Positions 12,422-52,658 of a stretch of DNA of 64,000 nucleotides are shown one piece after another. Under the pieces are notes generated by a model. That model was not told the origin of the DNA. It saw nothing but the letters and a program-made list of their open reading frames with translations, and ran no database searches. The translations under genes were made by a program, and so were the position numbers. Each line of letters begins with the position of its first letter. Position 1 is the first letter of the stretch. Source of the DNA: Yuukianura sp. NJ FZ-2021 (taxonomy: Eukaryota); assembly GCA_046563655.1 (NCBI GenBank), contig CM102285.1, positions 1,364,001 to 1,428,000 on the forward strand, in the 5' to 3' direction.

Positions 12422-15412
12422 ATGGATCCCGCCAAATCCGCTTTACCAGCCGGAGGTCAAGCTCAACCGACTCAAACGGTCTTGGAACTGTTCGAATCGA
12501 ACGTCCGCACCAAACCGGACGCAGTGGCCGTCCGAGATGCTTCGGGAAATTACACTTACGGTGAAATCGGCGCACGCGTGAACCAAATTGCTTCAAAAAT
12601 TACCGCCAGTTCGGATCCGGTAAAACCGAACCCCTACGTAGCCATTTTACTTCCGCAAGGTTCGAATTTCATCTCGTCACTTTACGGTATTTGGAAGTCC
12701 GGTCTCGGCGCAGGACCAATCGATATCGGAAACTCCGTGACTCAAATCGGTTTCATTTTGGAAGAACTCGGAAATCCGATACTGCTCACTTCAAGTCAAT
12801 ACTTGAACAAAGTTCAGGACTACTGCAATGTCATTTTGGTCGGAGAAGGTCACAAGGTCACATATTGTGGCCAATCAGAGGTCAAGCTCATTCGGAAGGC
12901 AACTGCGGGAGACATAGCCTTTGTTGTGTTCACTTCAGGATCAACTGGACGACCCAAAGGAGTTCTCATTCCACATCGCATTGTTTGGTTCAATGCAAAT
13001 TCAGCGTGGAGTTTAAGAGAAGTATCGGCCAAAGATGTGTCGTTGGCATACAGTAGTCCGGCATTCATTTTGAGTTTTTCTGAATACGTACCGCTCTTGT
13101 GTCGCGGCGGTGTCGTTGTTGTTCCGAATACCGATCTACGAACCGACTTGGACGCTCTGCACCAATTCATTAACGAACACGGCATTACTTTGATTTCCAT
13201 GACGACGCAAGCGGCCGTGAAGATGATCGAAAAACCGATGCCGAGTTTAAGATGGCTCAGATTCGGCGGAGAGAAACTTACGGTACCGATACCGAACAAT
13301 ACGACATTCAGAATGATCTATGTTTACGGTTTGAGCGAATGTTTTGCCATCAGTATTCGCATGACTTTTGACGAACCGGGAATCCCCAACAACGGACCAC
13401 TTGTACCGGGAGTTTCGGTTGTCTTTTTAGACGAAGATTTGAAACCGGTACCGGAGGGGGAGAAAGGCGAAATTTGTGTGTGGAGTCCGTTGGTGTTTAT
13501 GGGGTATTTGAACAATCCGGAACTCACGTATCAGCGATTCATCCCAAATCCGAACAATCCGGACCAAATTTTGTTCCGAACCGGCGACATTGGCTACTTG
13601 ACTCCAAATAAAGAATTAGTCGTTTGCGGTCGTGCAGATTTCCAAGTCAAAATCATGGGAAACCGGATTGAACTCGGCCAAGTCGAATTTGCTCTACAGC
13701 AACATCCGAAAATCCGACAAGCTGCGGCAATTGTCGTCGAAAACAACGAAACGAAACGACTCGTCGCATTTTGCACTCCGGTAGAAGGTGAAACCATTCC
13801 GGATTTGAATACCGTCTGCGATTTTCTTGAAGATCACCTACCGAGATTTGCATTCCCGAGCCAAATCAACAGCATTGACAAGATCCCCATGACAACGAGC
13901 GGGAAATTTGATCGTCAAGCACTCAAGGCCATCAAGGTAACGAAGCTAATTGAACCGGTACAAACCGAAACCGAAACAAATCTGGCGAGAATTTGGGCCG
14001 AAACGCTCCGAATTCCGGTCGAAGAAATCGGACGAAACGATACATTTTTCAGTCTCGGCGGAAACTCACTTCAACTGGCTCTGATTGTGACAAAACTTCA
14101 AGGAGATCCGTGGTTTCTTCAAATTCAAATCAAACAACTTTTTAAAGCTTCGCGGTTAGACAAATTTGCGGCACTGGTTGATTCGCTGATGGGCAAAAAA
14201 GGGGCGGAGCAAACCGGGAATCCCGATCAGCTGACTGAAGCCGACTTCGATAAAGACTCAGCTTTGGATGAAACATTTCCGAAAGAATTCAAGGCATTTC
14301 CTACAGGAAATGAAAACATTTTGGTTACAGGAACGACGGGTTATGTTGGCGCCAATTTTTTCAAAACTTTGATCGACCAAAGCACGGATTCTCAGAAGAT
14401 TTACTGCTTGATTCGTGCAAAATCAAACGCAGACGCGAAGGCACGACTGGAACTGACGCTGAAAAAGTACGGAATTGAAATGCCGACTTCTGAGAAGACG
14501 CTGGAACGAGTCATTTGCATTGCTGGAGACATTTCGAAACATCAATTTGGAATGAGCAACAGCGATTTCAGCGCCCTCTGCACTCAAATTGACGTCATTT
14601 TTCACATGGCGGCAGAAGTTCACTTTTTAAAATCTTATTCGGAGTTACGCGAAAGCAACGTCGGTGGAACTCGGAAGTTGCTTGACTTTGCCGTCCAATC
14701 AAAACTGAAGGTTTTGCATTACATTTCAACGTTTTCGGTTGTTGGCGGGCTAAATTCAACTGAAGAAATTTTGGAATCACGTGACCCCATTTTCAAAATC
14801 AAAGAAGCCGAGAGCCGTGACATGGGCTATGCACAGAGCAAGCGCATCGGAGAGAAATTAGTTTGGCATGCAATTGAACGCGGATTTCCAGCAGTTGTTT
14901 ACCGCCTAGGAGAAATTGGCGCCCATTCAACTTTGAATATTGTCAACAAACAGGATTTTTTGGCGCGTCTTTTTATCACTTGCAAAGAAACTGGCTTTCA
15001 TCCAATGATGGACAAATCTTTTCCGTACGGTTCAGTTGATTCAACATGTGAATCGATTCTAGAAGTTGCCAAACAGGGACAGAAAAATAGCGGAAAATGT
15101 TTCCATATTTTTGAAAATCAAATTTCGTATTTGGATGGATTTCGGGCCCTTAAGAACGTTGTTGGACTGGAGAGGATTGATTGGGCCAAGAAAATTGCGG
15201 GAATTATTCAAAGTCATTCGGATATGACTCAACAACAAGACTACAGCATTCTGCTTCAACTCATTCAAAATATGGGTGGTTCTTCGTCGGTTTTAGAAAA
15301 GAAATTTTCAAATGAAAATTTGAAAAATGTGGTTTCTGGAGCAGCCATGAGTTTCAATCCAAACCAAAATTGGGATCGCTATTTGAGTGTACTTTTTGAT
15401 GGACAAAATTAA
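12422..15412 (+). CDS. NRPS-like A-T-R enzyme (adenylation, PCP, terminal NAD(P)H reductase; carboxylic acid reductase/Lys2-like architecture), ~996 aa, intronless CDS
   Basis: A-domain cores FTSGSTGRPKG, YGLSE, GEICVWSPLVFMGYLN, FRTGD, GRADFQVKIMGNRIELGQVE, SGKFDR; PCP FFSLGGNSL (Ser codon 14066-14068); R domain ILVTGTTGYVG, HMAAEV, NVGGT, GYAQSK (YxxxK), YRLG. Confidence 0.95.
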   Translation: MDPAKSALPAGGQAQPTQTVLELFESNVRTKPDAVAVRDASGNYTYGEIGARVNQIASKITASSDPVKPNPYVAILLPQGSNFISSLYGIWKSGLGAGPIDIGNSVTQIGFILEELGNPILLTSSQYLNKVQDYCNVILVGEGHKVTYCGQSEVKLIRKATAGDIAFVVFTSGSTGRPKGVLIPHRIVWFNANSAWSLREVSAKDVSLAYSSPAFILSFSEYVPLLCRGGVVVVPNTDLRTDLDALHQFINEHGITLISMTTQAAVKMIEKPMPSLRWLRFGGEKLTVPIPNNTTFRMIYVYGLSECFAISIRMTFDEPGIPNNGPLVPGVSVVFLDEDLKPVPEGEKGEICVWSPLVFMGYLNNPELTYQRFIPNPNNPDQILFRTGDIGYLTPNKELVVCGRADFQVKIMGNRIELGQVEFALQQHPKIRQAAAIVVENNETKRLVAFCTPVEGETIPDLNTVCDFLEDHLPRFAFPSQINSIDKIPMTTSGKFDRQALKAIKVTKLIEPVQTETETNLARIWAETLRIPVEEIGRNDTFFSLGGNSLQLALIVTKLQGDPWFLQIQIKQLFKASRLDKFAALVDSLMGKKGAEQTGNPDQLTEADFDKDSALDETFPKEFKAFPTGNENILVTGTTGYVGANFFKTLIDQSTDSQKIYCLIRAKSNADAKARLELTLKKYGIEMPTSEKTLERVICIAGDISKHQFGMSNSDFSALCTQIDVIFHMAAEVHFLKSYSELRESNVGGTRKLLDFAVQSKLKVLHYISTFSVVGGLNSTEEILESRDPIFKIKEAESRDMGYAQSKRIGEKLVWHAIERGFPAVVYRLGEIGAHSTLNIVNKQDFLARLFITCKETGFHPMMDKSFPYGSVDSTCESILEVAKQGQKNSGKCFHIFENQISYLDGFRALKNVVGLERIDWAKKIAGIIQSHSDMTQQQDYSILLQLIQNMGGSSSVLEKKFSNENLKNVVSGAAMSFNPNQNWDRYLSVLFDGQN

Positions 15413-16028
15413 AAATGTGAAAAAAAAATGAAAATTTGAAAATTTATATACAAAGGTTACCGCCTATGCGGTAACATATATGTATGTTACCTCTGTTTTG
15501 GTTGTAAATAAAAACGAGCTCCTTCGTGCATATTTTAAAGCAATTAATTAGTATTATGCCTTTAACAGCTACGTCAGATTAAATTTATTTTTCCCATTAA
15601 CTACCTTTATACTTTTATTCTGCAATGATATTTTTTACATTTTTGTGAAACGTTTGTATCAGCAACTACATAAGTCGAAGAACTCACAGTTTTCCTACAT
15701 ACCCGTAAAGTTAAAATTTCAAAAATACAAATCAAACATCAAAAATCGGGATTCAGAAAAACCTTGTTTGAAGCAAGGCGGAACGCTGGGCAACCATTAA
15801 ACTAAACTTAAAATGGTTGTACAATTTTCAGTATTTTACTTTCCTAAAAAAAAGCATGCTGCACGTGCTTTTTCACATTTTTTTAGCCTGGAGCATATTT
15901 CGACACTTTTGCGATCAAAACTAAAATTCTCAAATTTGACTCAAGTTTCCTTCTGTTGCAGACAAAATTTATTTCATGTTTTACAAAGTGCTGCAAAATT
16001 CTTCTTTTAAAAATTGAAATGATGAAAT

Positions 16029-16599
16029 TTAGTTGGTTTCCTTGCGCTGCAAAAACTCCAGCCAAGCAGTCATCTCTTGCACGTCAACCTGCATTCCAAA
16101 AAAATAGATTTTAGAAAGCATTCTTGTAACCTAAACTACCAAAAAAAGTGAAAATCGAAAATTTTACATCTCCTGAGCGATTCGTGTCCGCCTCGCGCTC
16201 AAAATCGTCGAACGTTTTTCCCGCCATTTTGGGATACTGCGTGGACATCAGTTCATAAACTCTCTCAAATTCTTCTTTGCTAATAATCCCATCTCCGTTT
16301 GTATCGCACATTTTGGCGTACCAAGCAGCTTCAAGTGCTGGTGAATGCAAAATAGGCAGAATCTGTTCGAACCAAGCAAGTTTGCAGCGTGAGTCAAAGT
16401 GTTTCACAAAGTAGTCGATGTACCCTTGCTGTTGTGCTTCTGAGCGCTCGAATCCCAGGATTTCAAATGCTGCCTTTGCATCAACTGTATGAATCGAATC
16501 TGTTTCCGGATCGTAGGACTCTAGCGTCTTCAGTTTTGCTAAAATTTTCAAAATTTCTTCTTCTGTGTACGGAATAGACATGTCACGGAACGATTCCAT
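16029..16599 (-). CDS. Calmodulin-like EF-hand protein, copy 1 (163 aa; exons 16599-16168, 16088-16029)
   Basis: EF loops DTNGDGIISKEE and DTNRSGD|VDVQE, the latter completed by splicing; family N-terminus MESFRDMSIPYTEEE. Confidence 0.88.
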
Positions 16600-17049
16600 T
16601 TTTTTTCAATTTGTAGTTTGCAGCTCAAAAACTTTGCAGGTCAGTACTTCCGATCAGGTCGCAAAACTATATGTGACTACTTCTATTGTTTTGTGTGAAA
16701 GCAGACTAAATACTCTTCAAAAACTATTAAGACATTATTGTTATTTATTACTCAAGTTAATTAGGAGATAAACCGGTTACTTAATTAACTCTTAGGAAAA
16801 TGAAAAACCCAAAATCAGCTGTTTTTTTTCTTGTTTTTTTTTTTCTTTTTGGAAAAATTGAAGTTATGGCATAACTTTTACGGCAATTGTACAATGGCCG
16901 CTATAGCAACTTTGACACCTTTATACTTTTATTCTGCAATTTTGATATTTTTTACGCTTTCAAACTTTTTGTTTTGTACAAAACAAAGACTTTCAAAAAC
17001 TGCATTTTTTGAAAAAAAAAACATGGAAAATACATTTTGTGTTTTTGAT

Positions 17050-17526
17050 TCATTTGGAAAGTGATTCAAGCCATGCAGCCATTTCTTGCAAATCGACGTC
17101 TCCCGAATGATCAGTGTCCGCTTCACGAACAAAATCTTCGTAGGATTTTCCCGCTACTTTTGGCCACTGCACTGACATCAGTTCGTAAACTTGTTTGAAC
17201 TCTTCGGCTGAAATGAGGCCATCTCCATTTGCGTCACACATTTTTGCGTACCATGCTGCATGAAGAGGTAAAGAATGCTTGGCACGCATAAGTCCATCCA
17301 TCCACTCCACTTTGACAATTCCATAGTGCTTGGCATAGTAGTTTTCATATGCTTTGATTTGCTCTTCCGTTCGTTTGTCCCCAAATGCGATAGTGACTTC
17401 CCGGCAATTGGAAGGGGCGATACTGTCCGTTGCTGGATCGTAAGTCGGAAAAGTTCGGATTTTTGCCAGAATTTTGGCAATTTCCTCCTCCGTATATGGA
17501 ATAGACATGTCACGAAAGTTTTCCAT
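17050..17526 (-). CDS. EF-hand protein, copy 2 (158 aa, no coding intron)
   Basis: DANGDGLISAEE and DTDHSGDVDLQE loops in a single ORF. Confidence 0.9.
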   Translation of the reverse strand: MENFRDMSIPYTEEEIAKILAKIRTFPTYDPATDSIAPSNCREVTIAFGDKRTEEQIKAYENYYAKHYGIVKVEWMDGLMRAKHSLPLHAAWYAKMCDANGDGLISAEEFKQVYELMSVQWPKVAGKSYEDFVREADTDHSGDVDLQEMAAWLESLSK

Positions 17527-18537
17527 GGTTTGAAAACGTTGTAAACTCTGTGTGTAAAAAAATAACGTAAAAGTCAGTTTTTGGTTTACAAAAAAGTGAT
17601 TCTTTTTAATAAACTGAATTATTTACCTGAACACTCAACGCCAGAAAATTCGTCAGAAGTGTTTAGAAACTTTTGTTTTTTTAAAGATTTCTAACTTCTG
17701 AATTGTGAGCGAATGGTACTTGAAATGTGACAAAGTGATGGAAAATTTCGGAATTTATGCAAAATTTTGGGCGTAAAATTTTTAAATAGGTTGATTGAAA
17801 ACTGGTTTCTAATTTTATTGATACTAAAATTTTATATATGGATCATAAACTTTGGGTTACTTAATTAAAATATTTGATTAATGACGCTTTATTAGTGCTT
17901 AGATGTCTCATTTGAATGTGTATACCATGTGTACAGGGCGATTCCATTATTTTTTAAATTATGTTGCAGCTCAACAAAATAAAACTTTGTAGGTCAGTAC
18001 GTCTGATGAAGGTGCAAAATTTTGTGGGATTGCTTTTGCTTGTTCAGTGTGAAAGATGACTAAATACGCTTCAAAAACTATTATGACACTGTTAGTTTTA
18101 CGACCCATCAACTTATTCTGTGTCGATGAATTGCCGACTAGAGAAACCTATTAACTTACTTTTTGAAAATCAAAAACCTGTTTACAATTAAGAAGTTTAA
18201 ACTTAACTACTAAAGTTTTAAATAAAACTACAATTAAAACGACAAAATTAGCACGTTGTGATTTTGTGGAAGACCAAATACGTTGCCGTTTGCGTTGTGG
18301 GGCCAAAACGTCGCAACAGTGTAGTACAAATGTGAAATTGAAGCAGAACTTGAAATTTTTAAAATTCAAATTTTTCAAACTTGTATTTCCTAAACCCTTT
18401 ATTCAAACCAACCAATCCGAGCACTTCGTGAAATAAGAGATTCGGCTTAATAATGTTATTTACGACTCTCCTGGACATACATTTTAGCAAAGTTATAGTT
18501 TTAGTGGACGATTATGAATATTTAACACTGCATGTCA

Positions 18538-21500
18538 TTACTGTCTTGCTTTAATAACAACGTTGTACGGAGCCGGTTCTAGAGAAATTGTGACAACAAC
18601 TTTGTCAGACGGAACTCCGAAAGCTGGATCCACGTGGAAACTGAATTGCTGAACCAAAGTTGCTATTAACAGCATCAAGTTCGTTTTTGCAAGAGACTCC
18701 GCTATACACCGTCGCTTCCCTAATAAACCAAAATATGTCAACACACAACTTTGAGACTTTTTTTTTCAAGTGTTGAAACTAAATGTCACTAATAGTGCTT
18801 CAAGTTCGGGCCAAAAATGAAAAGTTCGAACTTCGAACCTAGGTTCGAACTTTCTGAAGAGCAAGTTCGAACTTTCGAACCTTTTTTTTACATGCAAAAA
18901 GCAAAGGGCAGTGAAAAAAATGGTGAGGGTGATAAATTTCGCAATTCACATCCAAATTGCATTTCCCCCCTGTATTTGAATTTTTTTCAAAAACTAACGT
19001 AGAACAGTAGGTTTAAAGTGAACTGAAACTACTTTCTCAGGCAATATGCCTCGGTTTTTGTTGAAATCCATGCATTGTTGAATATTTGCCAATATTGACG
19101 GGTAAGTTCGAACTCTTTTGGCTGAGGTTCGAACTTCGAACCTAGGAAAACAGCCAGGTTCGAGTTCGGAAGTTCGAACTCTAAAGTTCGAACTTGAAGC
19201 ACTAGTCACTAATCACCAAATCCGAAAGTAAATATTTTCTCGGCGTTGATGATTTTGTTTTCCGGAGAAAGAAATCTGTTGGGATTGAACTTCTGTGCGT
19301 TCTTCCAAACCGATTCGTCTCTATTAATTCCAAAGAGGTTCACGGCAATGAATGTGCCCTGCATTTAAAAAAAAATGTCATTTCAGTAAAATCTTTTTAA
19401 AACTTTCACTTTTTTGGAAGTATCTTTTACCTTGGGAATTAAGAAACCGTTGACCTCCCAGTCGCTCAATAACTTCCTTGGAGCAATAGGCCCAGGAGTA
19501 TTCAACCTAAAGTAAATTTTATGTATTAGTTAATAATTAATATATAATTATGATAGTAATTTATCTAATATTCTTGTATTGAATTTGCTGGTAAAATTAA
19601 AAAACTTGATTGATACTGACCTAAGCACTTCGTAGACAACTGCTTGGGTCTTAATCAGCCTGTTAGATGTAGTTATTAAAATGGTAAAATATGTATTATA
19701 TAAAGTAAGATTCAAAATATTTTTTATGATTTAAAATAAACTGTTGCTATACTGAATAATGAACATTCCGGTGTTCAACGGTAAAATACATATACTGGAA
19801 ACGTTAGTTTCCGGGATTATTTCAGGCAGATAGATAGACACAAGGTGGATAACGAAAGAAATACTTTTTCTTTAGCTTCTTTCAAGGTTAAAGGAAAACC
19901 TTGTTTGAAACGTTGAAATAGCAACCATGGATTAGACAAACGGACAGACCGCTAGGATCAACCCATTAGAGAGCTTTGCCTACTTATTTCATAATTTAAC
20001 GCTAGTTTTTAAGTTTACTTGGGTATGTCATCTACGTTGACGTGTCGAAATTTTCCAAGAACTTGATCAACTTCTGCGAAAAACTCATTCTGTGTTTGTG
20101 GGTTTTGCAGTAGGTAGCGAATAAAAAAATTCATGACATTCACTTCCGTGTCAATCCCACCAATGATGAGGTCCTGCATAACTGCTACCAAGTTCTGTTC
20201 TGATTTGCAGAAGTACAAATTCTTACAAAATTTGAAATTCCAAGTTTTGAAATTTTCAAATTTAGAGACAAATAGCAAACGAATGAAATGTGATATGGTC
20301 AGTATTTACCAGTGTAAATTGTATCCAAAGGATTTTCTGTTGCTTTTGTAGCATCTATTTTTGCTAAAAATGCGTCCAGAAAGTTGTCAGGTTCCACATC
20401 ATAATTTCTATTCTTGCGATGATGTGCGATAGCATCCTTAAACAGATCAGAATTTTGTGCGCAAATGATTTTTTAAATTTTGAACTTTATATGAAATATT
20501 TTACCCTCATGAGTTGCCGCCATCGTTCACAAGACTTCTTATGCCCAGTGTAACCCGTGACATTTGGAAACATTTTGATTAGGTTCGGGAAAACAATAGC
20601 CAAACCTCCGCCAAGTGTGCTGGACTTGGCAAATTCTAGGACGACGTTAATGACATTTTTTCGAAAAGAAGCGTCGTCTGCAGTAGTACATTTTCTCCCC
20701 GTAATCAAAGTCCAAACGATGTTATAGAATATCCTTGTAAACTGAGTTTCCATTTTGACACAAAGTTGACCATTTGACATGCGTCGTTTAAGTTCGTCAC
20801 AAAAGTCAACAATTTCCTCCAGAATTATCACCTCTGTCTTGTAATTGGAATGAAATCCAAACTTGTGCAATGTTTTTTGAACCATCAAACGAGTTTTCTC
20901 CCAAAATCCAGGCAAACTGAACCCAATTCCTAAAATTTCCAACCATAGTTTACATATTATTAATAGCACAGAAATAAATCGTTTCTGAATTCAGATTGAA
21001 ATTATTACCAATTGGAAGTTGATCACTTTTTTCAAGCATCCAAATATCGTCGGTGTCTCCATGGGACAACAACTTAGCTGAGAATTCTACACTAGATAGA
21101 AATTCATGGCCATTCACAACCACTGAAACAAAATTTTCAATGTTTTTTAAATTTAATTTCACACAGTTGAAAAAAAATCTTATGGTTTTTCATCTAACAC
21201 ATCGTAGTTGGTCCAACTTTAAGACGGAAGATTGGTCCATACGCTTTACTCAGCTTCATAAAAGCTTGCACAGGATTGTGAAAGTCAGCCCAAAGTACAG
21301 AAATAATCGACCCAATTAACGGTATCTCAATAGGACCTGTTCAATATATTAATATATTTAATTTTATTTCAATTAATAGATATGTACCGTAAATCCTCTA
21401 ATGCAAGCGCGCGCTTATAAGAATTTTTCCAGTTTTGAGACGCGCTTCTATTAGAGTGACGTTTTAATACTGGAATAAATAAAAACTCTGAATTATTTAT

Positions 21501-22490
21501 GTGCTTATTCCCGAAATAATTTATAGTTAGCATTAATAAATGAGTTAAATGTGTTTATGGATCGATCTCTTCGCTCAAGCCGCTCCCTGTTTAGGTTATT
21601 TTGTTCGTGCATTAATAAAGTCAACCAGTTTTGACAAAGGTGATAAAGAAACTAAAAATACGATTCAATAATCATATGATTAATTAAAATTGAGATGACC
21701 GTTCCCAAGGTTGCTATAGCAACCAATCTACAACCAGTCTACAAGAGGTTATCCAAGAATCAGAGTTTCCAAAAATCTTACTTCAAACAAATTTCTTAAC
21801 CAATTCTGCACCAATCGCATTTACATTACATGCACAAAGTTACCACCATAGAAAGTCAAAATTTTTTGTTCAAACAAATTTTAAAACTTCTAGTTACTGG
21901 ACAACCTGGTGTAGAAAAAGTTTTTTTTTAGTTTACGAGCCTTGACCGTTCCATATATTTTATCGTTTCTTTAACCCAGGGGAAGATTTGTTTCCGATGT
22001 ACTATGACAAAGTGGGGAGCGGCACCGTTCGTAGTACATTTGGAAGAATATTCGATCTCTTGTTGTAACTTGAAGCTAAGGTCAAACGATCTGGCTTTTA
22101 GTTTTCCATTTAATACTTCATCTTAGCTTAATGGTTACTCTTGGATTTGAAGACAAACAAGTATTGAAGGGACAGGATGTTAATCTAGAATCGGAGAATT
22201 CACTTCTAAATTTAAGTTAAATTGGAAATATATGCCGCGCTTATGTGTCATTTTCACTCGCCGGAACCGCGCTTGCATTAGAGTCTGCGCTTCTATTAGA
22301 ATGCGCGCTTGCATTAGACGATTTACGGTATGTGAATAAACATGCATAGATACATATTTTGTTAAAAATAAGTTGTACTATTTTTTGTTAAATATTCACC
22401 TGCAGGCCATTTGTATTTGGATTTGTGGAAGGCATTCCGAAAAATGTACAAAAACGCTAGAAATAACACGAATTGCACTGCAAGAAGCAT
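18538..22490 (-). CDS. Cytochrome P450 (probably CYP2 clan), copy A, multi-exon
   Basis: N-terminal anchor MLLAVQFVLFLAFLY, KWPAGP hinge, I-helix DLIIGGIDTE, YEVLR (ExxR), PNRF, heme motif FGFGKRRCIAE, C-terminus EPAPYNVVIKARQ. Confidence 0.88.
18793..19204. mobile_element. hAT-type MITE in the last intron of P450 A
   Basis: TIR TAGTGCTTCAAGTTCG...CGAACTTGAAGCACTA; 8 bp TSD GTCACTAA (18785-18792 and 19205-19212); many subterminal GTTCGAAC repeats; absent from the matching intron of P450 B. Confidence 0.88.
21387..22328. mobile_element. Non-autonomous Tc1/mariner-pogo-type DNA element in intron 1 of P450 A
   Basis: ~26 bp TIR CCGTAAATC(C/G)TCTAATGCAAGCGCGC with flanking TA duplications (21385-86, 22329-30); the matching intron of P450 B is only ~120 bp. 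Confidence 0.85.
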
Positions 22491-23137
22491 TGTACTGTGG
22501 TAAGTGCTAAAAAGAACTCCGATGTAAAAGGTAACGACTTTAAAAATAAATGTTCGTGGGAAAATTTATTTGCAAATTTTTGAGCAATAAGTGCTGACCG
22601 CGGAACTAACGAGAATGTCCAAGTAACTTGTAGTTTTGGTTTTGGAAAACCAAAGTTTATTTCTACAACACTTTACGAAGCCAAGACAACTTAGGCAAGA
22701 CGAAGTCAATACAAATATGTACGAGTGGAATGACTATCTCTATTTCAGTTTGCAATTCTTCGTGCAAAAAACTTTGACCTCGGGAGTAATCAGAATTTAC
22801 CAATGATTTGCCGTTTTTGTAAACAGGTTTCCTTGAAACCACAACTTAATTCCAAGAACTCCAAAAACCAAAAACAATTAATTTGAAACCGGGCTTCATT
22901 CAAATTTTTTTAGCACTAAAAGTTGCGAAACTGGAAACCCCGACGAAACTTATGTCATCTTTTTAGGTTTGACAACAGTGTAGTACAAAATTGAAATTGA
23001 AGTCAAATTTTGAAAATTTAAATTTTTTCAATTTAGCATTTGTAATTGCTAAACCTAAACAAATCTGAGCAAAACGCTCAGATTCATTTCGGTTGTTGCG
23101 ACTCCTCTTGACGTACAATTTAGCATGTTTATTTTTT

Positions 23138-25927
23138 TTACCGGACGATTGGATAATAAGAATATTTAAAATTGTATTTCATTGTTGCCTTGAGTTGATA
23201 ACTACGTTGTACGGGGCGGGTTCTGCACTTAAGTGTGACAACAACCTTGTCCGAGGGAACTCCAAACGCTGGATCCACCTGGAAACTGAATTGCTGAACC
23301 AAAGTTGCTATCAACAGCATCAAGTTCGTTTTTACAAGAGACTCTCCTATACATCGCCTCTTCCCTGAAATAAAATTTCAATAAAAAAACAAAGTGTCAA
23401 CATTTTTTCTTCAAAGTTTGAAATTGAACGTCATCCTTTAAAATACCGAATCCAAAAGTAAATATTTTCTCGTAGTTGATGATTCTGTTTTCCGGAGAAA
23501 GAAATCTGTTGGGATTGAACTTCTCTGCGTCCTTCCAAACCGATTCATCTCTATTAATTCCAAAGAGGTTGACGGCAATAAATGTGCCCTACATTTGAAA
23601 AAAAAAGTTCAATAAAGTATTTTCAAAACATTCACTTTTTTGGAAGTGTCTCTGACCTTGGGAATTAAGAAGCCGTTGACCTCCCAGTCACTCAACAACT
23701 TCCTCGGAGTAATAGGCACAGTTGTACTCAGCCTAAAGTAAGTTTGATATATAATGATAATATTTAATGATAATGATTAATTTAATTTGCTCGAATTGAA
23801 AATTGTTGATAAAATTAACACACTTGATAGATACTGACTGACCTCAGCACTTCATAGACAGCCGCTTGGGTCTGAATCAGCCTATGAAAAAGTTTTGAAA
23901 GCATAAAATATGTATAATATACACAACTAAAATAATAAATAGAAAAAATGTTAAAAATAAAAAAGAAGTGTATGAAAGTAGCGAAAGATGGTCGTTTGGA
24001 GGCTCTCACCCAAACACCAATGCTAACTACTGATATGTATCATGTGCTATGGTTATGAAAGTAAAATGAAAAAAAGTTGCCTTTTGACCTGGAAGGAGAT
24101 CAACTAGTGTCGCATGACGTACTGAAACGCTGCTGATATAGTTCACATGAGAAACGCTTGTATATAGGGCAATTTTAATATTACACGGGATGGAACCGGA
24201 GGACGCTGACCTTTGACCTCTGACCGTAAACGGTTGGCCATTGACTTACCAGAATGCTACTGAATAGTGAACGTTACCCAAGAAACGTCTACCGGTTTAT
24301 GAGATTATTTCATACAGACAGAGAGACTGACAGACAGACAGACAGATGAGGCAAAGCTTAAGATAGCTTTTGCTACTTAATGAATAATTTAACGCTAGGT
24401 TTACTTGGGTATGTCATCTACGTTGACCGGTCGTTTTCCAAGAACTTGGTCCACTTCTGCAAACAATTCATCCTGAGTTTGTGGATTTTGAAGAAGGTAG
24501 CGAACAAAAAAGTTCATGAAATTTGCTTCCGTGTCAACCCCACCAACGATGAGGTCCTGCATAACTGCCACCAAGTTCTCTTCTGATTTACAAAAGTAAA
24601 GTTTCACAAACTTTACCAGTTTTGAAATTTTGAAATGAGACAAACAGTAAACGAATGAAGTAGACTATTGAAATAAGTATTTACCAGTGTAAATTGTATC
24701 CAAAGGATTTTCATGTGGTTCTGTAGCATCTATTTTTGATAAAAATGCGTCTAGAAAGTTGTCAGGTTCTGCATCATAATTTCTATTCGTTCGATGATGA
24801 GCTGTAGCGTCCTTAAGCACATCAGATTTTGTGCTTCGTGTTTTCCTTTAAAGTTCAAATTTTTGTATTCCATTTTAAATATCTTACCCTCAGTAGTTGC
24901 CTCCATTGTTCACAACGCTGTTTATGCCTATTGTACCCGCAGAGATTTGGAAACATTTTGATTAATTTTGGGAAAACAATACCCAAACCTCCGCCAAATG
25001 TGCTGGACTTCACATATTCCATCACTGATTTAATGATGTTTTTCCGAAAAAGAGCGTCGTCTGAAGTACATTTTTCCCCCGTCATCAAAGTCCAAACGAT
25101 GTTGTAGAATATTTCAGTAAACTGAGTTTCAATTGTTAAGCAAAGTTGGCCATTTGTCATGCGCCGTTTAAGTGCATCACAAAACTCAACAATTTCCTCC
25201 AGAATTATGACCTCAGTCTTGTAATTGGAATGAAATCCAAAATCGTGCAAAGTTTTTTGAACCATCGGGCGAGTCTTGCTCCAAAATTCAGGCAAACTAA
25301 ACGCAATTCCTAAAAGTTTTAAACCCAATTTACATAACTTATTTTCTCATTTGTAAACTACTAAATGTTTTTCTGGATTATATTGTTACCAAGTGGAAGT
25401 TGAGCAGTTTTTTCAAGTACCCAGATATCCTCGGTATCCACATGAGACAGCAACTTATCCGAGAATTCTACGCTGGATATAAATTTATGCCCGTTCAGAA
25501 CCACTGAAACAGGATTTTGAATGATTTTTAGGTTCAATTTCACATAACTAAAAAGAAAGTGTCTCATTTTTAGTCTAACCCATCTTAGCAGGTCCAACTT
25601 TAATAGAGAAGATTGGTCCATATTTTTTGCTCAGCTCCATAAAAGCTTGCGAAGGATTGTGAAAGTCAGCCCAAAGAACCGAAACAATTGATCCAATAAA
25701 CGGTAGCTGAATAGGACCTGTTTATACAAATATGTTATATATTATATGCATATATGTATCATATATAGGACATGTGTACGAAATTTTATATAATTTATAT
25801 GTATTTTAACGGTAATAGTTTTTGCTAAATATTTACCTGGGGGCCATTTGTATTTGGATTTGTAGAAGGCATTCCGAAAAACGTACAACAACAGCAGAAA
25901 TAACAGGAATTGCACTGCATAAAGCAT
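23138..25927 (-). CDS. Cytochrome P450, copy B (tandem paralog; +1 frameshift in last exon)
   Basis: MLYAVQFLLFLLLLY, DLIVGGVDTE, YEVLR, FGFGKRRCIGE; same exon structure as copy A; paralog-frame stop at 23179-23181, frameshifted stop at 23138. Confidence 0.85.
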
Positions 25928-26614
25928 TTTACTGTAGCAGTTCTAAGAGAATTCGATGTAAAGTGTATTGACTGAAGAATTAAATCTTGGTGGAAAAATT
26001 TATTTGCAAATTTTTTTGCAAAAGATGGCTGTGTCGGAACTAAACCACAATTTTGAAATAACTCGTGGTTTTGCTTTTGAAATAAATATGAAACTGGAAT
26101 TTAGTGTTAAAACTAAAAACACTTTACGAAACGAATTACGAAACACTTTGGTAAGACATAGGGATTCAATACTTACTACAGATGCACTGTATGCACGAGT
26201 GCAATGATGATCTTACTATAGATATTTACTTGAGTTTGCAATTATTTGTGTAAAAAAATTTGACCTCGGAGCTAATCAGAATGTACGAACGTCCATACGT
26301 TTTTGCAAACAGGTTTAGTTGAAACCAAAACTTCACCTGTACCATGGAAATTTCCAAAACTCGACACCCATGCAAACTTATTTTGATTTTTTATGTTCGT
26401 TATGCCAGCTAGTTTTAACAGAAAAACTTTATGTCATGAATATGATAAATTGTGATTAATAGTTAATCTCTCAACTGTTTTTTCATCACATAAGGCTCTT
26501 ACAAACAACAATGAATTGAAATATTGGAACTTTTAGTGTTAATTTGTTTGAAAGTGAAACTTTCCAACTATTTTAGTTTTTTTAGTTTAACCAATCCAAT
26601 AGAGGCATTAAAGC

Positions 26615-26764
26615 TTAGAATAAGATTATCCCCGTGTTTGCAGTATCAGAAGACTTGGGAACGCAAAAGCAACGGTCGATGCAGAGCGAGCCTTTAAGTC
26701 CTCCATGGCTCTTGCAGATTTTATAGCATGGATCTTTCTTGTTCGTAACCAGGGAACAGGAACT
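26615..26764 (-). CDS. Defensin-like (CSalpha-beta) terminal exon; upstream exons unresolved or disrupted
   Basis: After a TTTTGTAG acceptor: SSCSLVTNKKDPCYKICKSHGGLKGSLCIDRCFCVPKSSDTANTGIILF*; Cys spacing C-x9-C-x3-C-x10-C-x3-C-x-C. Confidence 0.6.
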   Translation of the reverse strand, partial: SSCSLVTNKKDPCYKICKSHGGLKGSLCIDRCFCVPKSSDTANTGIILF

Positions 26765-27953
26765 CTACAAAAAATAGAATAAAACGTGTTTTAGTAAAAT
26801 AAAAAAAAGAACGGGTTCGATTTTGAAGGCCTACTTGGCCCACTCAGAAAGTTATTACCACAGGAGGTGGTAATTGTGCAATTCCAAAATACAATTTTGT
26901 TATGTAAGTACACATGAATCATGGGCCCAGCAATTTACACGGCGAGAAAGCGAAATGGGCCCAAAATCAACCAATTCCCGTAGGTGTCCTTTGTGTACGA
27001 CATTTCATATGTAATATTAAAACATGAACTATTGAAACTAATTTCAAACTTGGATTTGATAAATATTTGAACCAAAATTATAATTACAATAAAAAAAATC
27101 GTAATTTTACTTTGATTAAATTTTTCTTCTGAAGTTTGCCATTTTTGTATTGGTAGAAGACACAGTTGCATGTTGCCAAGTTTGACGACGAACTGGAAGT
27201 TAAGCCACGGCCACAGTCGGGGTTACAAAAATTCAGTGCCTTCCCAACTTTTCGTGTTGCTAAGCAATTTCTAGTTGGTAAGCACCATATGCAGCAGAAT
27301 GTAACAAACGTGGCTTGAATTACAGTTTTGCTGCATATACAAAAGGTCGAAATTTAAAAAATCCAAAAAACTTGATTCAGAAAAACAATTATTTGAAGCA
27401 AACAAGGAAGTAAAGCCGAATATCCAATTAAAATCAATAATGATTTTACAATCTTCAGCATTTTTTTTTGCAGAGAAATGAAACGAACGTAAAAATTCTG
27501 ACCTGGTGAAGGACAGCATGCTGCTCAACAAAAATTTGAAAAAAAACGAAACAACTCCGTATTTACGAGAATTGGAATGCCAACTTGCGCGAAGATAAAT
27601 GTAACCTAACTTATATTTGAGCTAAAATAATGTTCTCGAAGAATCGGCCATGACATGAGTAATTCAACCATATGTGTAAAATTTGCACTAAATTGCAGTT
27701 AAGAACCAGTGCAAGGTAATTTGACCATACCCTAACCTAATACTGCATGGCCATACAGTTTTTTTTTTCAGCTTTTTGAAATCTTATGCAGAGTTCCAGA
27801 GTTGCGAAAAAGTAGAGTCGGTAGAACACTTATGAACTTCGTCGTCCAATCAAAACTTTACATTTCAGGAATTCGTGTTTTATTGAACAAAGTTTATTTT
27901 ATGTTTTAAGTACTTCAAAAAAAATTATTAAAATTGAAACGCTGAAATTTGAT

Positions 27954-28544
27954 TCAAGTTTTCTTGCGTTGCAAAGACTCGAGCCAAGCAGTCATCTCTT
28001 GCACATCAACCTGAAACCTTTGAAACTTGAAACCTTTTTAGAAATAGATTCCAGAAACCAAAAATGACAGGAAAAATCAAAATTGAAAGGATGAAAATCG
28101 AAATTTTACATCTCCCGATCGATCCGAGTCTGCCTCGCGCTGAAAATCCTCGAACGTCTTTCCCGCCATTTTCGGATACTGAATGCACATCAGTTCATAA
28201 ATTCCCTCAAACTCTTCTTTGCTAATAACTCCATCTTCATTCGCATCACACATTTTTGCGTACAAAGCAGCTTCGAGTGCCGGTGAATGCAAAACGCGTA
28301 CGATTGGTTCCAAAGAAGCAACATGACAGCGTCCTTCTAAGTTTTTAACATAATAGTCAAGGTACGCTTGACGTTGTCCTTCTGACCGCTCGTATCCCAG
28401 CACTTGAAATGCTTCCAGTCCTTCTTGAACTGCGCTAAACGTATCACGTTCTGGATCGTACGATGATAACGTTCTGAATTTGTTTAAAATTTTGGCAACT
28501 TCTTCGTCTGTGTACGGAATCGACATATCACAAATCGATTCCAT
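27954..28544 (-). CDS. EF-hand protein, copy 3
   Basis: MESICDMSIPYTDEE; DANEDGVISKEE; DSDRSGD|VDVQE with the same intron as copy 1. Confidence 0.85.
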
Positions 28545-29564
28545 CTCTTGTTGGAATTTTGAGCTTGCAGTTAAAAAAAAGTTTTTCAGGGCTGCACTTC
28601 TGATCAGATCAGGTTGATAAACTTTGAGTGAGTGGTTTACTTCTTCATTGCGAAAACAGATTAATATACAAAGGGGCATTAAACAGTAAAAAACTGAAAA
28701 TTGTTGCTAATTGCCAATTAAATAAATTTGCGAAAATTAATTTTTTAATGCGGAAACTTTAATTGACGGAAAAAACTTATTATTAGTTTTGCTACTAATA
28801 TCCCTCCATAGCTACTGGCAACAAAGCAAACTTTCAAAAATAGTGGAGGGGGGTGAAGTTATCCAACTCTATCACATTTTTTAAATGCCGTTCTGCAGTT
28901 GAAAAGTTTTTTTTGCCGACTTTGTCGTATAAAATGTTTCGCTGTATACCCAAAAAGTCGAAATTGAAAAAAAATCCAAAAAACCTGATTCATGAAAATT
29001 GAAGCAAACTAGGACACTGGGTCGAATATCCAACTAAAATAAATAATGATTCTACAATTTTCAGAATTTTTTTTTCAGAAAAATGGAACAAACGTAAAAA
29101 TTCTGCCCTTGTGAAGGACATCATGCTGCTCAACAAAATTTGGAAAAAAAAACGAAACAACTGCGTATTTACGACAACTGGAATGCCAACTTGTTGCATG
29201 CCGGAAAATAAATCTAACCTAACTTATACTTGGATTAAAATAATGTTTTTGAACAATCGTCCATGACATAAGTAATTCAACCATATGTGCAAAATTTGCA
29301 CTAAATTACATTGAGAAACAGAGCAAGGTAAATTGACCATACCTTAACCTAATACTGCATGGCCAAACAGTTTTTTCAGTTTTTAGAAATCTTATTATGC
29401 ATATTTGAAGGGTTGCGAAAAAGTAGAGTGGGTAGAGCTCTGCTGTACTTTGCCGCCAAACTCGAAATTTCAGGAATTTGTGTTTTATTGAACAAAGTTT
29501 ATTTTATGTTTTCCAAAGTACTTCAAAAAAATTTGACGAAAATTGGAATTCTAAAATTTTTCAT

Positions 29565-30131
29565 TCAAGTTTCCTTGCGTTGCAAAGACTCGAGCCAACC
29601 AGTCATCTCTTGCACATCAACCTAAAGTAAAAAAAAATGGCTTTTTAAAAAGGATTCCTGTAAATGACCACAAAAATGTGAAAATCAAAATTTTACATCT
29701 TCCGATCGATTCGTGTCCGCCTCACGCACAAAATCCTCGAAAGTTTTTCCCGCCATTTTCGGCCACTGCTGTGACATCAGTTCATAAACGTTCTCAAATT
29801 CCTCTTTGCTAATAACGCCATCTCCGTCCAAATCAAACATTTTTGCGTACCAAGCAGCTTCAAGTGCCGGTGAATGCAAACTGCGCACGAGCTGTTCCAA
29901 TGGACCAACAGGGCAGCGTCCGTTTAAGTTTTTAACGTAGTAGTCGATATAAACTTGCCGTTGTGCTTCTGAGCGCTCGTATCCCAGCACGTTAAATGCT
30001 TCATGTCCATCCTGCACTGCAGAAAACGAATCGCTTTTTGGATCGTAAGACGGGAACGATTTGAAGCCTGCTAAAACTTTGGCAACTTCTTCTTCTGTGT
30101 ACGGGATCGACATGTCACGAAACGATTCCAT
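29565..30131 (-). CDS. EF-hand protein, copy 4
   Basis: MESFRDMSIPYTEEE; DLDGDGVISKEE; DTNRSED|VDVQE. Confidence 0.87.
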
Positions 30132-30719
30132 TTTTGTTCAAAATTTAAATTTTGAAGCTAAAATTTTCAAAATTTCCACGGTTTCTGATTTGTTTGAAAA
30201 CTTAATGAGAGTGACTGTTAGTCTGGAAAAAACATTTCACCACCAATTGAATTTTTTTTAAAAAATTTATCACCTAGCAATTAGTGGTTTGTCTTTGGAA
30301 ATTTTCGGTCATTCGTATCAAACAACCACTTTGATAATAATAATTAATTTACACTTTTAATATATAATAGCCTTACTTGACTGCTTGAAAGAAATGTTTT
30401 ACAACACATAATTAGTTCTTACGAGGGAAACCCTTTGATCATTTATCTCGAAATTTCGAATTTATAAATTACGGTGGGATTCTGTATGTCAAAAGAAAGT
30501 TTTCTGCAGTGTTGTTTTGTTAACATACTGAGTGTTGATTTGTTTGGTACTGATGTGTTTGCATTTCTGATGTCTTTTACTGATGTAATGGCGTACTTCG
30601 GTTGTAAAATCGGTTAGCACTCGACAAAGAATAATCTCAACTACAGTGGTACAGACAGCTTTGAGGTTTGAAAAAATGAAAGTCTTCAAATTTCAAAAAC
30701 TTTTTTTTTCCAATGCCAA

Positions 30720-31160
30720 TGAAAAGTTGAAAGAACTAATTTGCTATATAAGTTTCTCTGCAACACTGTCGCCCACAATGACAATTTTGCACATTGTAGC
30801 AGAAATTCAGTTTTTCGAAAATCTTACGCAGAGTGGCAGAGTTACAAAAAGTAGCATTGATGGGCTCCTCGGAACCTTTTCAACTCTACCGTCAAGTCAA
30901 AACTCAACATTTTCAACTACGTTTCAACATTTCTGGTTGTTGGAGGGCTAAATTCAAATGAAGAAATTTTAGAACCAATGGTTCAATTTTCAAATCCAAA
31001 CATGCACAGAGTTCTTCCTTAAATTATTCACAAATTAAGCGTTTAGGAGTGAAATTGGTTTGGCACGCAGTTGAACTTTGCACAGTTGTTTACCTTCCAC
31101 GACAAATTTTCGCCCAATCCTAGTTTGAACATTATCAACAAACTGGATTTTCGGCGCTTA
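30720..31160 (+). pseudogene. Decayed fragment of the NRPS reductase (R) domain
   Basis: Collinear nucleotide similarity to ~14500-14970, e.g. GTTGTTGGAGGGCTAAATTCAAATGAAGAAATTTTAGAA vs GTTGTTGGCGGGCTAAATTCAACTGAAGAAATTTTGGAA, and GAAATTGGTTTGGCACGCAGTTGAA vs GAAATTAGTTTGGCATGCAATTGAA; contains indels. Confidence 0.85.
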
Positions 31161-31312
31161 TTATGAATGCTTACAATGACACTTAAGCCTTAGGTTAAGC
31201 CTTAGATCCTTAAGATTTGATAAAGATAAGGCTTAGATCCATTAGATTTGATGAACAAATTTTATTGTATATTTCACAAAGTACTCCAAAAAATTAACGA
31301 AAATTGAAATGT

Positions 31313-31889
31313 TCAATTCACGTTTTTTTTTCGTTGCAAAGACTCCAGCCAAGCAGTCATCTCCTTCACGTCAACCTAAATTTAAAAAAAATGAATTTTT
31401 GAATTCCAGGTTGATTAGGAGAAAAGTGAAAATTTTAATAAAAGGAAATTTTACATCTCCCGACTTATCCGTATCCGCTTCACGCACAAAATCCTCGAAA
31501 GTTTTTCCCGCCATTTTCGGCCACTGCTTTGACATCAGATCATAAACGCTCTCAAATTCTTCTTTGCTAATAACGCCATCTCCGTCCGAATCAAACATTT
31601 TTGCGTACCAAGCAGCTTCAAGTGCCGGTGAATGCAAAATGCGCACGAGCTGTTCCAATGGACCAACAGGGCAGCGTCCGTTTAAGTTTTTAACGTAGTA
31701 GTCGACGTACGCTTGCCGTTGTGCTGCTGACCGCTTGAATCCCAGCACGTTAAATGCTTCCGGTCCATCCTGGACTGCACAAAACGAATCGCTTTTCGGA
31801 TCGTAAGACGGGAACGATCTGAAACCTGCTAAGATTTTGGCAACTTCTTCTTCTGTGTATGGAATCGACATATCACGAAACGATTCCAT
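31313..31889 (-). CDS. EF-hand protein, copy 5
   Basis: Nearly identical to copy 4; DSDGDGVISKEE; DTDKSGD|VDVKE. Confidence 0.87.
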
Positions 31890-34113: not shown

Positions 34114-34601
34114 TGAAAGGGTGCCAACCGGACCCACCTTGGTCCAGTGTAGCAACCCTCCCGTAACCTCGGCAGTGACTCAAAGAAGGTGAAAGACGTG
34201 ACCCTGGAATGCGTGCGACGATGAGTTTATTGCGCTGTTCGCCCTAAGGGTCCCTCTGGACCTCGGTGTTGGATACCAAGACTCGTCCACCCTCCAGGTC
34301 CTCCATCAGGGTGGAAGATCTGGAGAGGAGACCTACTGACTCTCGGCTACTCTCCTGCTTCACTCTCTCCCAATCTACTGTCTCCCAAGCTACTACTCTC
34401 CGCTCTCCCGCACTCCTCTGCTACTTAAGCTTTCTCTCATGGTCAGGAATGTGACCATGAGAGGAAGCTGCCAAACCCAAAAGTAGCTCCTCTCACTCGG
34501 CCAACATAGGCTCGTGTGCAAAACCTTGAGTCAGTGTGCCAAATCTATGTGGGTAGTGAGGACAGGGTTCCGTGGGCTAACCACGGGATCCTGACCTCAC
34601 A
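34114..34601 (-). repeat. 3' LTR
   Basis: Identical by eye to 40724-41211; minus-strand AATAAA at 34226-34231. Confidence 0.95.
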
Positions 34602-34889
34602 TTCCTCCCTGCCAACACCGAATTCCTGGAAGGAATTCCCTTTCTTTACACAGCCTCAATGTTAGTTGTTAGCAATATATCCTATACTCAAAGTCACACA
34701 TTTTTTGTTTTGATGCACACGACATGAAATAGCTATATAGTATTCTGATAACAATGTCTTATCGGATCTTATGCAGGAGTTACCTCTAACATTGTGTTGA
34801 TTACATAACAATACATTACTAATAAAAGCACTCAACATCTATACATTACTACGGTTCGTTCGTATTATTTTTGTATTTTGATATTTCTT

Positions 34890-35983: not shown

Positions 35984-36228
35984 GCTGTGTGTCACAGCAA
36001 TAATTATAAGCAGCACATGCTTTCTTATATTTTTAGTTTTGTTAGTCAATAATGTATAAACTTAACCTATGGTTAGTGAGTTACTTTGTAGTTTACATTA
36101 CATTATGTTCAGTTTCATAATTTTTAAGCCATGTGGTCGTAGGCCGTGTCCTTTGGGGACTAATAGCTAGGGGTGATTCGTGTTTAATTGACCTTGCAGG
36201 TATGTTATTAGCAATGTCAATTTGTTCG

Positions 36229-37347: not shown

Positions 37348-37490
37348 GATAACTATTGATGCGTATTGATGAAAAGTTGACTCATGATCTTTTGGCGTAT
37401 TCGTTAGGATAGTCGCTGCGGGAATCGATTTGTCATAAACAGATTGTGGTTTCGCGGAACATAATTCATACTTGGGTTGAATGGAGGTCG

Positions 37491-40704: not shown

Positions 40705-40722
40705 CCCCTGCATCGGGCACCA
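40705..40722 (-). promoter_or_regulatory. Primer-binding site of the LTR element
   Basis: TGG-initiated 18-mer TGGTGCCCGATGCAGGGG one base inside the 5' LTR. Confidence 0.8.
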
Positions 40723-40723
40723 A

Positions 40724-52447: not shown

Positions 52448-52658
52448 TTTACAAGTATATTTGATTATAGTTGCAGCTATACTTTAGTTTGGAAAGTAGT
52501 TGAAATAGAAGACTACATGAGCCAATGAGTACTACAGACCGAATTTCATACAGTATGTTACTCAATTCAGTTACGTTAATTAGTTGCAATTATGTTAAGT
52601 TACGGCAATTGGATTTGAAAATTTTAACATGAATATGGTAGGTAGTACATTAGACTCT

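Follow-up and report, generated by a model that had tools for sequence, protein, structure and literature searches.

An animal-encoded adenylation-thiolation-reductase gene of probable bacterial origin among tandemly duplicated EF-hand and cytochrome P450 genes

To our knowledge, animals encode few thiotemplate enzymes, and for hardly any of them is the product known. The accessible text on the molluscan bur-ox locus describes FmtATR, an animal-encoded, bacteria-like nonribosomal peptide synthetase (NRPS) monomodule for which an ancient horizontal transfer was proposed and whose terminal reductase reduces the thioester to an alcohol (Venugopalan & Schmidt 2025, PMC11869996). Pathogen-induced polyketide synthase (PKS)-NRPS genes with a flanking cytochrome P450 gene are described for bdelloid rotifers (PMC11258130, in the text accessible), scattered NRPS loci for arthropods including springtails and a mite, together with antiSMASH-type clusters in springtails (accessible text of PMC10531068), and three NRPS clusters, along with an expansion of 116 diacylglycerol acyltransferase (DAGAT) genes, for the Folsomia genome (PMC5490193, likewise in its accessible text). 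Here we analyzed 64,000 nucleotides of Yuukianura sp. NJ FZ-2021 (contig CM102285.1 of assembly GCA_046563655.1, forward strand, positions 1,364,001 to 1,428,000; hereafter the window), which contain eukaryotic, animal genes. An interval of this window (12422−31889, ending at the ATG of the gene EF5) holds a gene for an adenylation-thiolation-reductase enzyme (A-T-R; the gene is termed ATR below), five EF-hand genes, two P450 genes, a Cys-rich exon and a second, decayed R-domain copy. An earlier note had taken these elements for a candidate cluster whose genes may make and handle a small molecule, and each of the elements that it listed was recovered at or near its position by open reading frame (ORF), Pfam, tblastn and Cys-pattern analysis. 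On balance, we consider the interval to be a hotspot of tandem duplication in the compact genome of an invertebrate, probably an arthropod, with ATR as its one unusual gene.

The gene predicted from the note as an A-T-R enzyme proved real, intact and of the thioester-reductase type. Pfam matches to AMP-binding (2.1e-55), AMP-binding_C (1.4e-9), PP-binding (3.7e-8) and NAD_binding_4 (2.7e-57) placed the A domain at residues ~24−495, the T domain at ~521−561 and the R domain at ~633−963. The carrier motif GGNS, which includes Ser549, aligned to the GG(N/H)S of bacterial modules, and the R domain is of the short-chain dehydrogenase/reductase (SDR) type with a Rossmann TGxxGxxG motif and the Tyr803/Lys807 pair. 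Ser549, Lys495 of core motif A10, the Rossmann glycines, Tyr803 and Lys807 are identical in the window protein (P0001) and its two closest relatives (P0002 and P0003). ATR passed the cut-off of the thioester-reductase model TIGR01746 (229.8 versus 213.35), stayed under that of TIGR01733 (262.4 versus 317.4) and missed by a wide margin all the equivalog models, namely those for MxcG, AusA, Lys2 and carboxylic acid reductase. The protein thus has the A, T and terminal R domains of an NRPS-like A-T-R monomodule, with all catalytic motifs intact. Because the enzyme is real, intact and of this type, the locus very probably yields an aldehyde or an alcohol from an activated acid; whether the reduction ends at the aldehyde or continues to the alcohol is not readable from the sequence.

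The same domain order and catalytic motifs characterize bacterial terminal reductases and stand-alone A-T-R enzymes, including MxaA, MxcG, AusA, carboxylic acid reductases and the Xenorhabdus "ATRed" (PMC7586950, accessible text). The best profile and structure matches of ATR were MxcG (1.1e-117), AusA (5.3e-101) and MxaA (1.6e-39), and its top relatives of solved structure were also bacterial: linear gramicidin synthase A (LgrA) for the A-T part and MxaA for the R domain. In contrast to these enzymes, ATR is encoded by an animal, shares at most 37% identity with the bacterial proteins, falls short of the equivalog cut-offs and carries in core motif A4 an Ile that was present in none of nine bacterial loci.

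This A4 residue bears on the class of the substrate. The motif reads F-I-L-S in ATR versus F-D-x-S in bacterial modules (F-D-A-S in a pairwise example); the Asp (Asp235 in GrsA numbering) binds the α-amino group of amino-acid substrates. A 145-aa query spanning the A4 region returned 13 high-scoring segment pairs among 84 loci, of which two missed the motif, two, from relatives of ATR, had Ile, and the nine bacterial ones all had Asp. Beside the window, the Ile form was thus seen only in these two loci (L001 and L002), and neither ATR nor these two relatives have the Asp of an amino-acid-activating A domain. Because this Asp is replaced by Ile, we infer that ATR activates not an α-amino acid but a carboxylic acid lacking a free α-amine. 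Counted by motif offsets, the invariant Arg280 may line the pocket, which is speculation on our part.

ATR has in common with FmtATR that an animal encodes it, that it is a bacteria-like monomodule ending in a reductase and that it lies near a P450 gene, which makes bur-ox the closest published analogue in logic (PMC11869996, accessible text). The two systems differ in their parts. ATR has no formyltransferase domain in the protein or upstream of it, and no aminocarboxypropyl/methyltransferase (ACT) or flavin monooxygenase (FMO) neighbor was found in 11300−34150. In this region we compared with Pfam the 149 longest of 230 ORFs of at least 40 aa, ATR excluded, and obtained only p450 (eight ORFs), EF-hand (five ORFs) and two weak, probably spurious matches (E 0.0017 and 0.0064); the sweep revealed no methyltransferase, transporter, FMO, phosphopantetheinyl transferase (PPTase) or further tailoring family, which is consistent with the earlier remark that no housekeeping gene lies in between. 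As described in the accessible bur-ox text, that enzyme activates tyrosine, its P450 is soluble and Streptomyces-like, and its genes carry animal introns (PMC11869996), whereas the window A domain lacks the amino-binding Asp, the window P450s appear to be membrane-anchored, multi-exon and clan-2-like, and ATR is intronless. With the rotifer and springtail genes, ATR shares the setting of microbe-like thiotemplate genes, sometimes flanked by P450 genes, in the genomes of small invertebrates; those genes, however, are condensation-domain NRPSs, PKS-NRPS hybrids and β-lactam genes, and an A-T-R gene with EF-hand and P450 neighbors is not described in the accessible article texts (PMC11258130, PMC10531068 and PMC5490193). 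Our literature search likewise found no description of an A-T-R/EF-hand/P450 locus; its scope was article texts, and the supplementary locus tables of PMC10531068 and PMC5490193 may list ATR or an orthologue.

The relatives of ATR point to bacteria as its source. In a whole-length search that scored 8000 candidates and gave 5121 matches, only two close relatives stood among the 120 matches listed: P0002 (60% identity over the full length) and P0003 (54%). Both are encoded on short, eukaryote-like environmental contigs and are likewise intronless. The other 118 listed matches had no more than 37% identity, mostly across the A-T part, and all the named ones were bacterial NRPSs. A search with the R region (29 matches) placed P0002 and P0003 first, followed by proteins at 25−37% that were cyanobacterial, otherwise bacterial or unnamed and, last, the named fungal proteins (Phycomyces); no animal protein appeared among the 120 whole-length and 29 R-region matches listed. 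When each prokaryote species was represented by one genome, the full-length A-T-R matches were at 26−29% (an Actinomycetota metagenome-assembled genome, Streptomyces, Millisia, Clostridia and Ruminococcus). A metagenome scan gave no match with the single ATR protein as query and four loci with an alignment as query (L001−L004), two of which (L003 and L004) were distant (21−23%) and were not used. In an R-domain tree (33 rows, unrooted, with several long branches), the grouping (P0001,(P0002,P0003)) joined P0040 with 99/98 support, and the window clade fell among bacterial-type R domains, far from Phycomyces. ATR is intronless although its neighbor genes carry introns. Base composition gave no hint of a foreign source, and we discarded it as an argument for one: ATR equals its neighbors in GC content and in GC at third codon positions (GC3; 0.45, with a neighbor range of 0.36−0.54). 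The most economical reading of these sequence comparisons, and one that we hold to be reasonably probable, is that ATR was gained from a bacterium by an old horizontal transfer, so that it is probably an animal NRPS-like gene of bacterial origin.

Self-comparison of the window by BLAST showed that the locus is a patchwork of several independent tandem duplications. The EF1 region matched the EF4 region at 78% and the EF3 region at 74%, EF4 matched EF5 at 86%, the segments 27325−28560 and 28936−30146 matched each other at 80%, and the two P450 genes matched at 73−83%, introns included. Outside the interval, the DAGAT and seven-transmembrane (7TM) duplicates showed the same duplication process. 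One of the duplications included ATR. The R-domain fragment near the end of the interval matched ATR residues 712−846 (tblastn E 1e-9, 31% identity) and has five in-frame stops in each of the two required frames, with a frameshift between them. Three of seven ATR-type queries detected it, all three from the window's own clade, and it carries a stretch specific to the window ATR that is absent from P0002 and P0003. Because of this shared stretch and the clade-only matches, we take the fragment for a decayed local duplicate. At the nucleotide level, 14597−14992 of ATR matched 30784−31183 (70.6% identity), and 15962−16605 of the EF1 region matched 31255−31895 at EF5 (75%). EF5 abuts the fragment just as EF1, which begins 0.6 kb past the ATR stop, follows the intact gene; the spacing of these matches indicated that a block of ATR and the convergent EF gene was copied whole and later lost ~900 nt.

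The two P450 genes look like native enzymes. Pfam p450 matched eight ORF pieces across both genes, whose exon borders, assigned by visual inspection, are approximate; we give them no CYP family name. A hydrophobic N-terminal anchor and, after it, a Pro-Pro-Gly hinge are encoded in exon 1; the genes have the ExxR motif, and their last intron interrupts the heme loop, whose FGFG/KRRC is read across the junction. The final Gly of this loop (FxxGxRxCxG) is Ala in P450-1, a gene in which the inspected reading frames showed no break. The last exon of P450-2 contains a 1-nt insertion ~60 nt ahead of the position of the P450-1 stop, which replaced the conserved C-terminal stretch. The I-helix exon was closest to CYP17A1 (E 1.8e-5) and CYP1A1 (1e-4), and a PDB search with exon 4 gave no match. 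The I-helix matches, the N-terminal anchor and the many introns make both proteins look like native, microsomal, membrane-anchored clan-2 enzymes.

Contigs from three DNA runs of two studies skipped 968 nt of the first intron of P450-1 (21359 to 22328), which suggests a polymorphic insertion; the summed depth of the bin 21554−22214 was very high, as would fit a repeat family. DNA contigs showed such depth at 18.2−19.6, 21.5−22.2, 24.2−24.9 and 28.2−28.8 kb, pointing to repeats. Some contigs joined the P450 copies and skipped one repeat unit (for example, 18723 to 23444); these joints may reflect copy-number variation or paralogue or assembly chimeras, and we did not use them as evidence.

The EF-hand genes form a family of seven copies, two of them outside the interval, so that the array runs 13 kb past its end, beyond a retrotransposon and unrelated genes. 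Pfam EF-hand_1/5/6/7 matched the C-terminal pair of motifs in all five copies of the interval (EF1−EF5), EF2 is 53−59% identical to its paralogues, and the proteins have no signal peptide. Canonical paired 12-residue loops, together with the predicted structure, mark them as putative Ca2+-binding proteins: the AlphaFold2 (AF2) model of EF2 (pLDDT 94.4) is compact, with eight helices and four EF-hand motifs. In EF1 and EF3−EF5, a 60−80-nt intron is followed at once by a small final exon, which supplies the rest of the fourth EF-hand. Compared across the family, EF2 has no intron, EF1 and EF3−EF5 have the splice site behind the Gly-Asp of loop four, and EF6 and EF7 have it 4 nt later, which looks like intron loss and intron sliding inside one tandem family. 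A further peculiarity was seen in EF4, whose fourth loop (29694−29705) has Glu in place of the loop Gly of the six other paralogues, a change that may weaken Ca2+ binding at that site.

The plan of four EF-hands and eight helices is shared with calmodulin and the neuronal calcium sensors, and the window protein aligned to calmodulin over the full length (E ~2e-6). In contrast to calmodulin, only its C-terminal two loops are canonical and the N-terminal pair is not, and the identity was only 16−25%. Foldseek comparison of the model returned generic EF-hand matches only (calmodulin E ~1e-3; KChIP and hippocalcin with TM scores of at most 0.48), which neither support nor counter a carrier-like cavity. 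A profile search gave 571 matches at E ≤1e-3 and 71 at ≤1e-10 (best 9.1e-28), the full-length relatives having 155−180 aa, and all ten of these that we looked up were on environmental contigs. A word-based search with EF2 yielded eight candidates, none of them significant, and a neighbor of EF2 in the language-model Atlas was a mollusc cluster. The window proteins belong to a family of their own, of ~155−180 aa. The role of Ca2+-gated carriers that the note had suggested for them was left unsupported, though not refuted, by these comparisons, the family being a widespread four-EF-hand one with no specific likeness to ligand carriers.

The exon that had been called defensin-like could be confirmed as a pattern only, because it has no Pfam match and its predicted fold is of low confidence. 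A polypyrimidine/AG acceptor precedes it, and its six-Cys pattern (C..CxxxC..C..CxC) occurred on average 0.025 times per window in 200 block-shuffled windows. The spacing is therefore present, but no Pfam family, defensins included, matched at E ≤0.01; the single-sequence AF2 model (pLDDT 64) showed a hairpin and no helix, and no upstream signal-peptide exon was identified.

Table 1. Positions of genes and other features in the window (numbering from the first nucleotide of the stretch)
Feature	Position	Strand	Remarks
DAGAT tandem pair	1-3291	-	80% nucleotide identity
XRN1	5744-11308	+	intron-bearing; ends 1.1 kb upstream of ATR
ATR (A-T-R gene)	12422-15409; stop codon 15410-15412	+	single ORF, intronless, 996 aa
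EF1, EF-hand paralogue	16041-16599; ATG 16599; small last exon 16044-16088	-	two exons
EF2, EF-hand paralogue	17050-17526; ATG 17526	-	158 aa; sole copy without intron
P450-1	18538-22490; exon 1 ~22400-22490	-	~10 exons
P450-2, tandem paralogue of P450-1	23138-25927	-	~10 exons
Cys-rich terminal exon	26618-26764	-	49 codons; CS-alpha-beta-type six-Cys spacing
EF3, EF-hand paralogue	27963-28544; ATG 28544	-	two exons
EF4, EF-hand paralogue	29574-30131; ATG 30131	-	two exons
R-domain pseudogene fragment of ATR	30735-31327	+	stops and frameshift; no A or T domain
EF5, EF-hand paralogue	31328-31889; ATG 31889	-	two exons; abuts R-domain fragment
LTR retroelement	34114-41211; LTRs 34114-34601 and 40724-41211		between EF5 and EF6/EF7; LTRs 488 bp, 100% identical
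Cys-rich ORF	42977-43888	+	single exon, ~300 aa, apparent signal peptide
EF6, EF-hand paralogue	44479-45041	-	outside interval; intron shifted by 4 nt in the 3' direction relative to EF1 and EF3-EF5
EF7, EF-hand paralogue	46187-46642	-	outside interval; last exon not located
7TM-like tandem genes	47376-52453	+	two copies, 80-88% nucleotide identity
Rel/NF-kB-type gene	55621-57731	-	C-terminal region Gln/His-rich
7TM-like gene(s)	60199-62445	-	

Several of the features in Table 1 are side observations. The long terminal repeat (LTR) retroelement must have inserted very recently, because its LTRs are identical; its ORFs are a weak gag-like one (Ty3_capsid) and an aspartyl-protease one, with none other of at least 90 aa listed, and it may be non-autonomous. 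The Cys-rich single-exon ORF downstream of it has no Pfam match and gave one CS-alpha-beta regular-expression match. The 7TM-like genes also have no Pfam match; the nearest Atlas neighbors of one of them were arthropod "hypothetical protein" clusters (score 0.96, 213−215 of 256 features shared), a lower-ranked cluster carried 7tm_7 in 16% of its members, and the genes may be divergent gustatory-receptor-like genes. These arthropod neighbors are a lead rather than proof that the genome belongs to an arthropod, and the tandem DAGAT pair is likewise reminiscent of the springtail expansion (PMC5490193). The Rel/NF-kB-type gene was recognized by RHD_DNA_bind (3.6e-39) and RHD_dimer (1.3e-24).

Taken together, these results lead us to favor a hotspot in which ATR and its neighbors have no functional link. 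The A domain would adenylate a carboxylic acid without a free α-amino group and tether it through a thioester bond to the Ser549 phosphopantetheine arm, and the SDR-type R domain, with its TGxxGxxG motif and Tyr803/Lys807, would use NAD(P)H to set free the aldehyde or alcohol. ATR was most likely acquired from a bacterial donor in the distant past, and its composition has become that of the host. Its neighbors are ordinary host families that multiplied in place (seven four-EF-hand proteins of the cytosol and two P450s of membrane-anchored clan-2 type), and ATR and its convergent EF neighbor were duplicated together once, the second ATR copy then decaying. Several points weigh against this view. 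The transfer from a bacterium rests on best matches and an unrooted tree from a prokaryote-rich database in which small invertebrates are poorly represented; no candidate donor exceeds 37% identity, the sister P0040 carries no taxon, and ATR shows no foreign signal in its composition. Chance may be unlikely to account for the position of ATR within 3−10 kb of two P450 genes, and animal NRPS loci with a flanking P450 exist, according to the accessible texts on molluscan bur-ox (PMC11869996) and the bdelloid PKS-NRPS (PMC11258130). ATR and its EF neighbor were copied together, as would equally be expected if the two were functionally coupled. Finally, the lack of linkage at the environmental locus L001 is weak evidence, because its flanks are short and it may be a paralogue from another species.

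Some of these points would fit a genuine animal biosynthetic cluster, in which one or both P450s oxidize the aldehyde or alcohol made by ATR and the EF-hand proteins and Cys-rich peptide might share a defense or signaling programme. The distance from ATR to the nearer gene end is ~3.1 kb for P450-1 and ~7.7 kb for P450-2, the co-location expected of a gene cluster, with all parts within 20 kb and no unrelated family between them, and P450-1 appears unbroken. There are also precedents in which an NRPS-like reductase stands with a P450 and FMOs (bur-ox, PMC11869996) or a PKS-NRPS with a co-induced flanking P450 (bdelloid rotifers, PMC11258130), both as given in the accessible texts. However, the window P450s are recent tandem duplicates of native clan-2 type, one of them frameshifted, in contrast to the soluble, bacteria-like bur-ox enzyme (accessible text of PMC11869996). 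ATR is convergent with EF1 and has XRN1 as its upstream neighbor, so it shares a promoter region with no neighbor; the Pfam sweep added no methyltransferase, transporter, PPTase or other tailoring family; and the EF array extends outside the interval. The flanks of ATR in L001 (1.07 kb upstream and 2.45 kb downstream) contained no EF-hand gene, no P450 and nothing window-like, and L002 has almost no flank. None of the DNA contigs (three sets, in pieces of up to 2 kb) joined ATR to a P450. As an aside, a 296-aa frame with hydrophobic stretches, no Pfam match and no likeness to the window follows the L001 ATR (5248−6138, plus strand). We therefore regard a genuine cluster as unlikely, and as a shade less likely still its more specific form of mixed origin, in which a bacterial ATR retuned to a non-amino-acid substrate (the A4 Asp-to-Ile change and Arg280) would sit beside native clan-2 P450s that oxidize its product in place, with the adjacent, putatively secreted Cys-rich peptide and Ca2+ sensors in the same module, in a small arthropod and with gene copy numbers still in flux. 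Of the earlier proposal that the locus makes and handles a small molecule, the acid reduction by ATR is supported, while the joining of ATR, P450 and EF-hand proteins in one pathway, which is not refuted, gained no support from their independent duplications, the native P450s and the different neighbors in L001.

A different alternative concerns the enzyme itself, which might belong to a primary-metabolism class known from animals or fungi, such as Lys2 aminoadipate reductase, the glycine-betaine reductase ATRR, AASDH (ACSF4-U26) or Ebony. The general A-T(-R) logic is shared with these enzymes, and the Lys2 model TIGR03443 matched ATR at 1.5e-78. The score, however, was 264.5 against a cut-off of 1030.1, that for carboxylic acid reductase (NF041592) was 161 against 1300, and the best matches of ATR were bacterial NRPS modules, with animal proteins absent from both lists of matches. 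The ATRR architecture carries a second R domain; ATR, with 996 aa, has a single one. An assignment to one of these classes is thus quite improbable.

We consider it highly improbable that ATR and the convergent EF gene make up a functional pair, with the EF-hand protein as a Ca2+-dependent regulator of the reductase or a carrier of its product. The copying of both as one block (14597−14992 and 15962−16605 onto 30784−31183 and 31255−31895) would agree with such a pair, but a segmental duplication carries along any adjacent gene. In addition, the ATR copy decayed and EF5 stayed open, an intact ATR stands beside only one of the seven EF genes, L001 has no EF gene, and the modeled EF protein shows the compact four-EF-hand fold in a generic form. 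Bacterial contamination or an assembly chimera, to which the missing introns of ATR and its bacterial nearest annotated relatives might point, is very unlikely and hardly to be credited because the GC and GC3 of ATR are host-like, intron-bearing animal genes (XRN1 and the EF-hand gene) flank it on both sides of one contig and its decayed paralogue sits within the EF array between EF4 and EF5, to which DNA contigs of a second study (X5) covering parts of ATR, EF1, EF2 and the pseudogene at ~90−99% identity and the eukaryote-like nature of the L001 and L002 contigs can be added.

The hotspot that we favor thus contains an intact enzyme gene of host-like composition, with a pocket that, by its sequence, would exclude ordinary amino acids, from a small clade otherwise found only in environmental eukaryote contigs. 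ATR represents another probable transfer of a gene from a bacterium to an animal and a practicable starting point in the search for a new aldehyde or alcohol made by an animal, which could be a pheromone, a defense compound or a precursor of cuticle or pigment. If its product serves the adjacent P450s, the locus would be a rare animal gene cluster built of foreign and native parts; if not, it would be a useful caution that tandem-duplication hotspots can mimic clusters.

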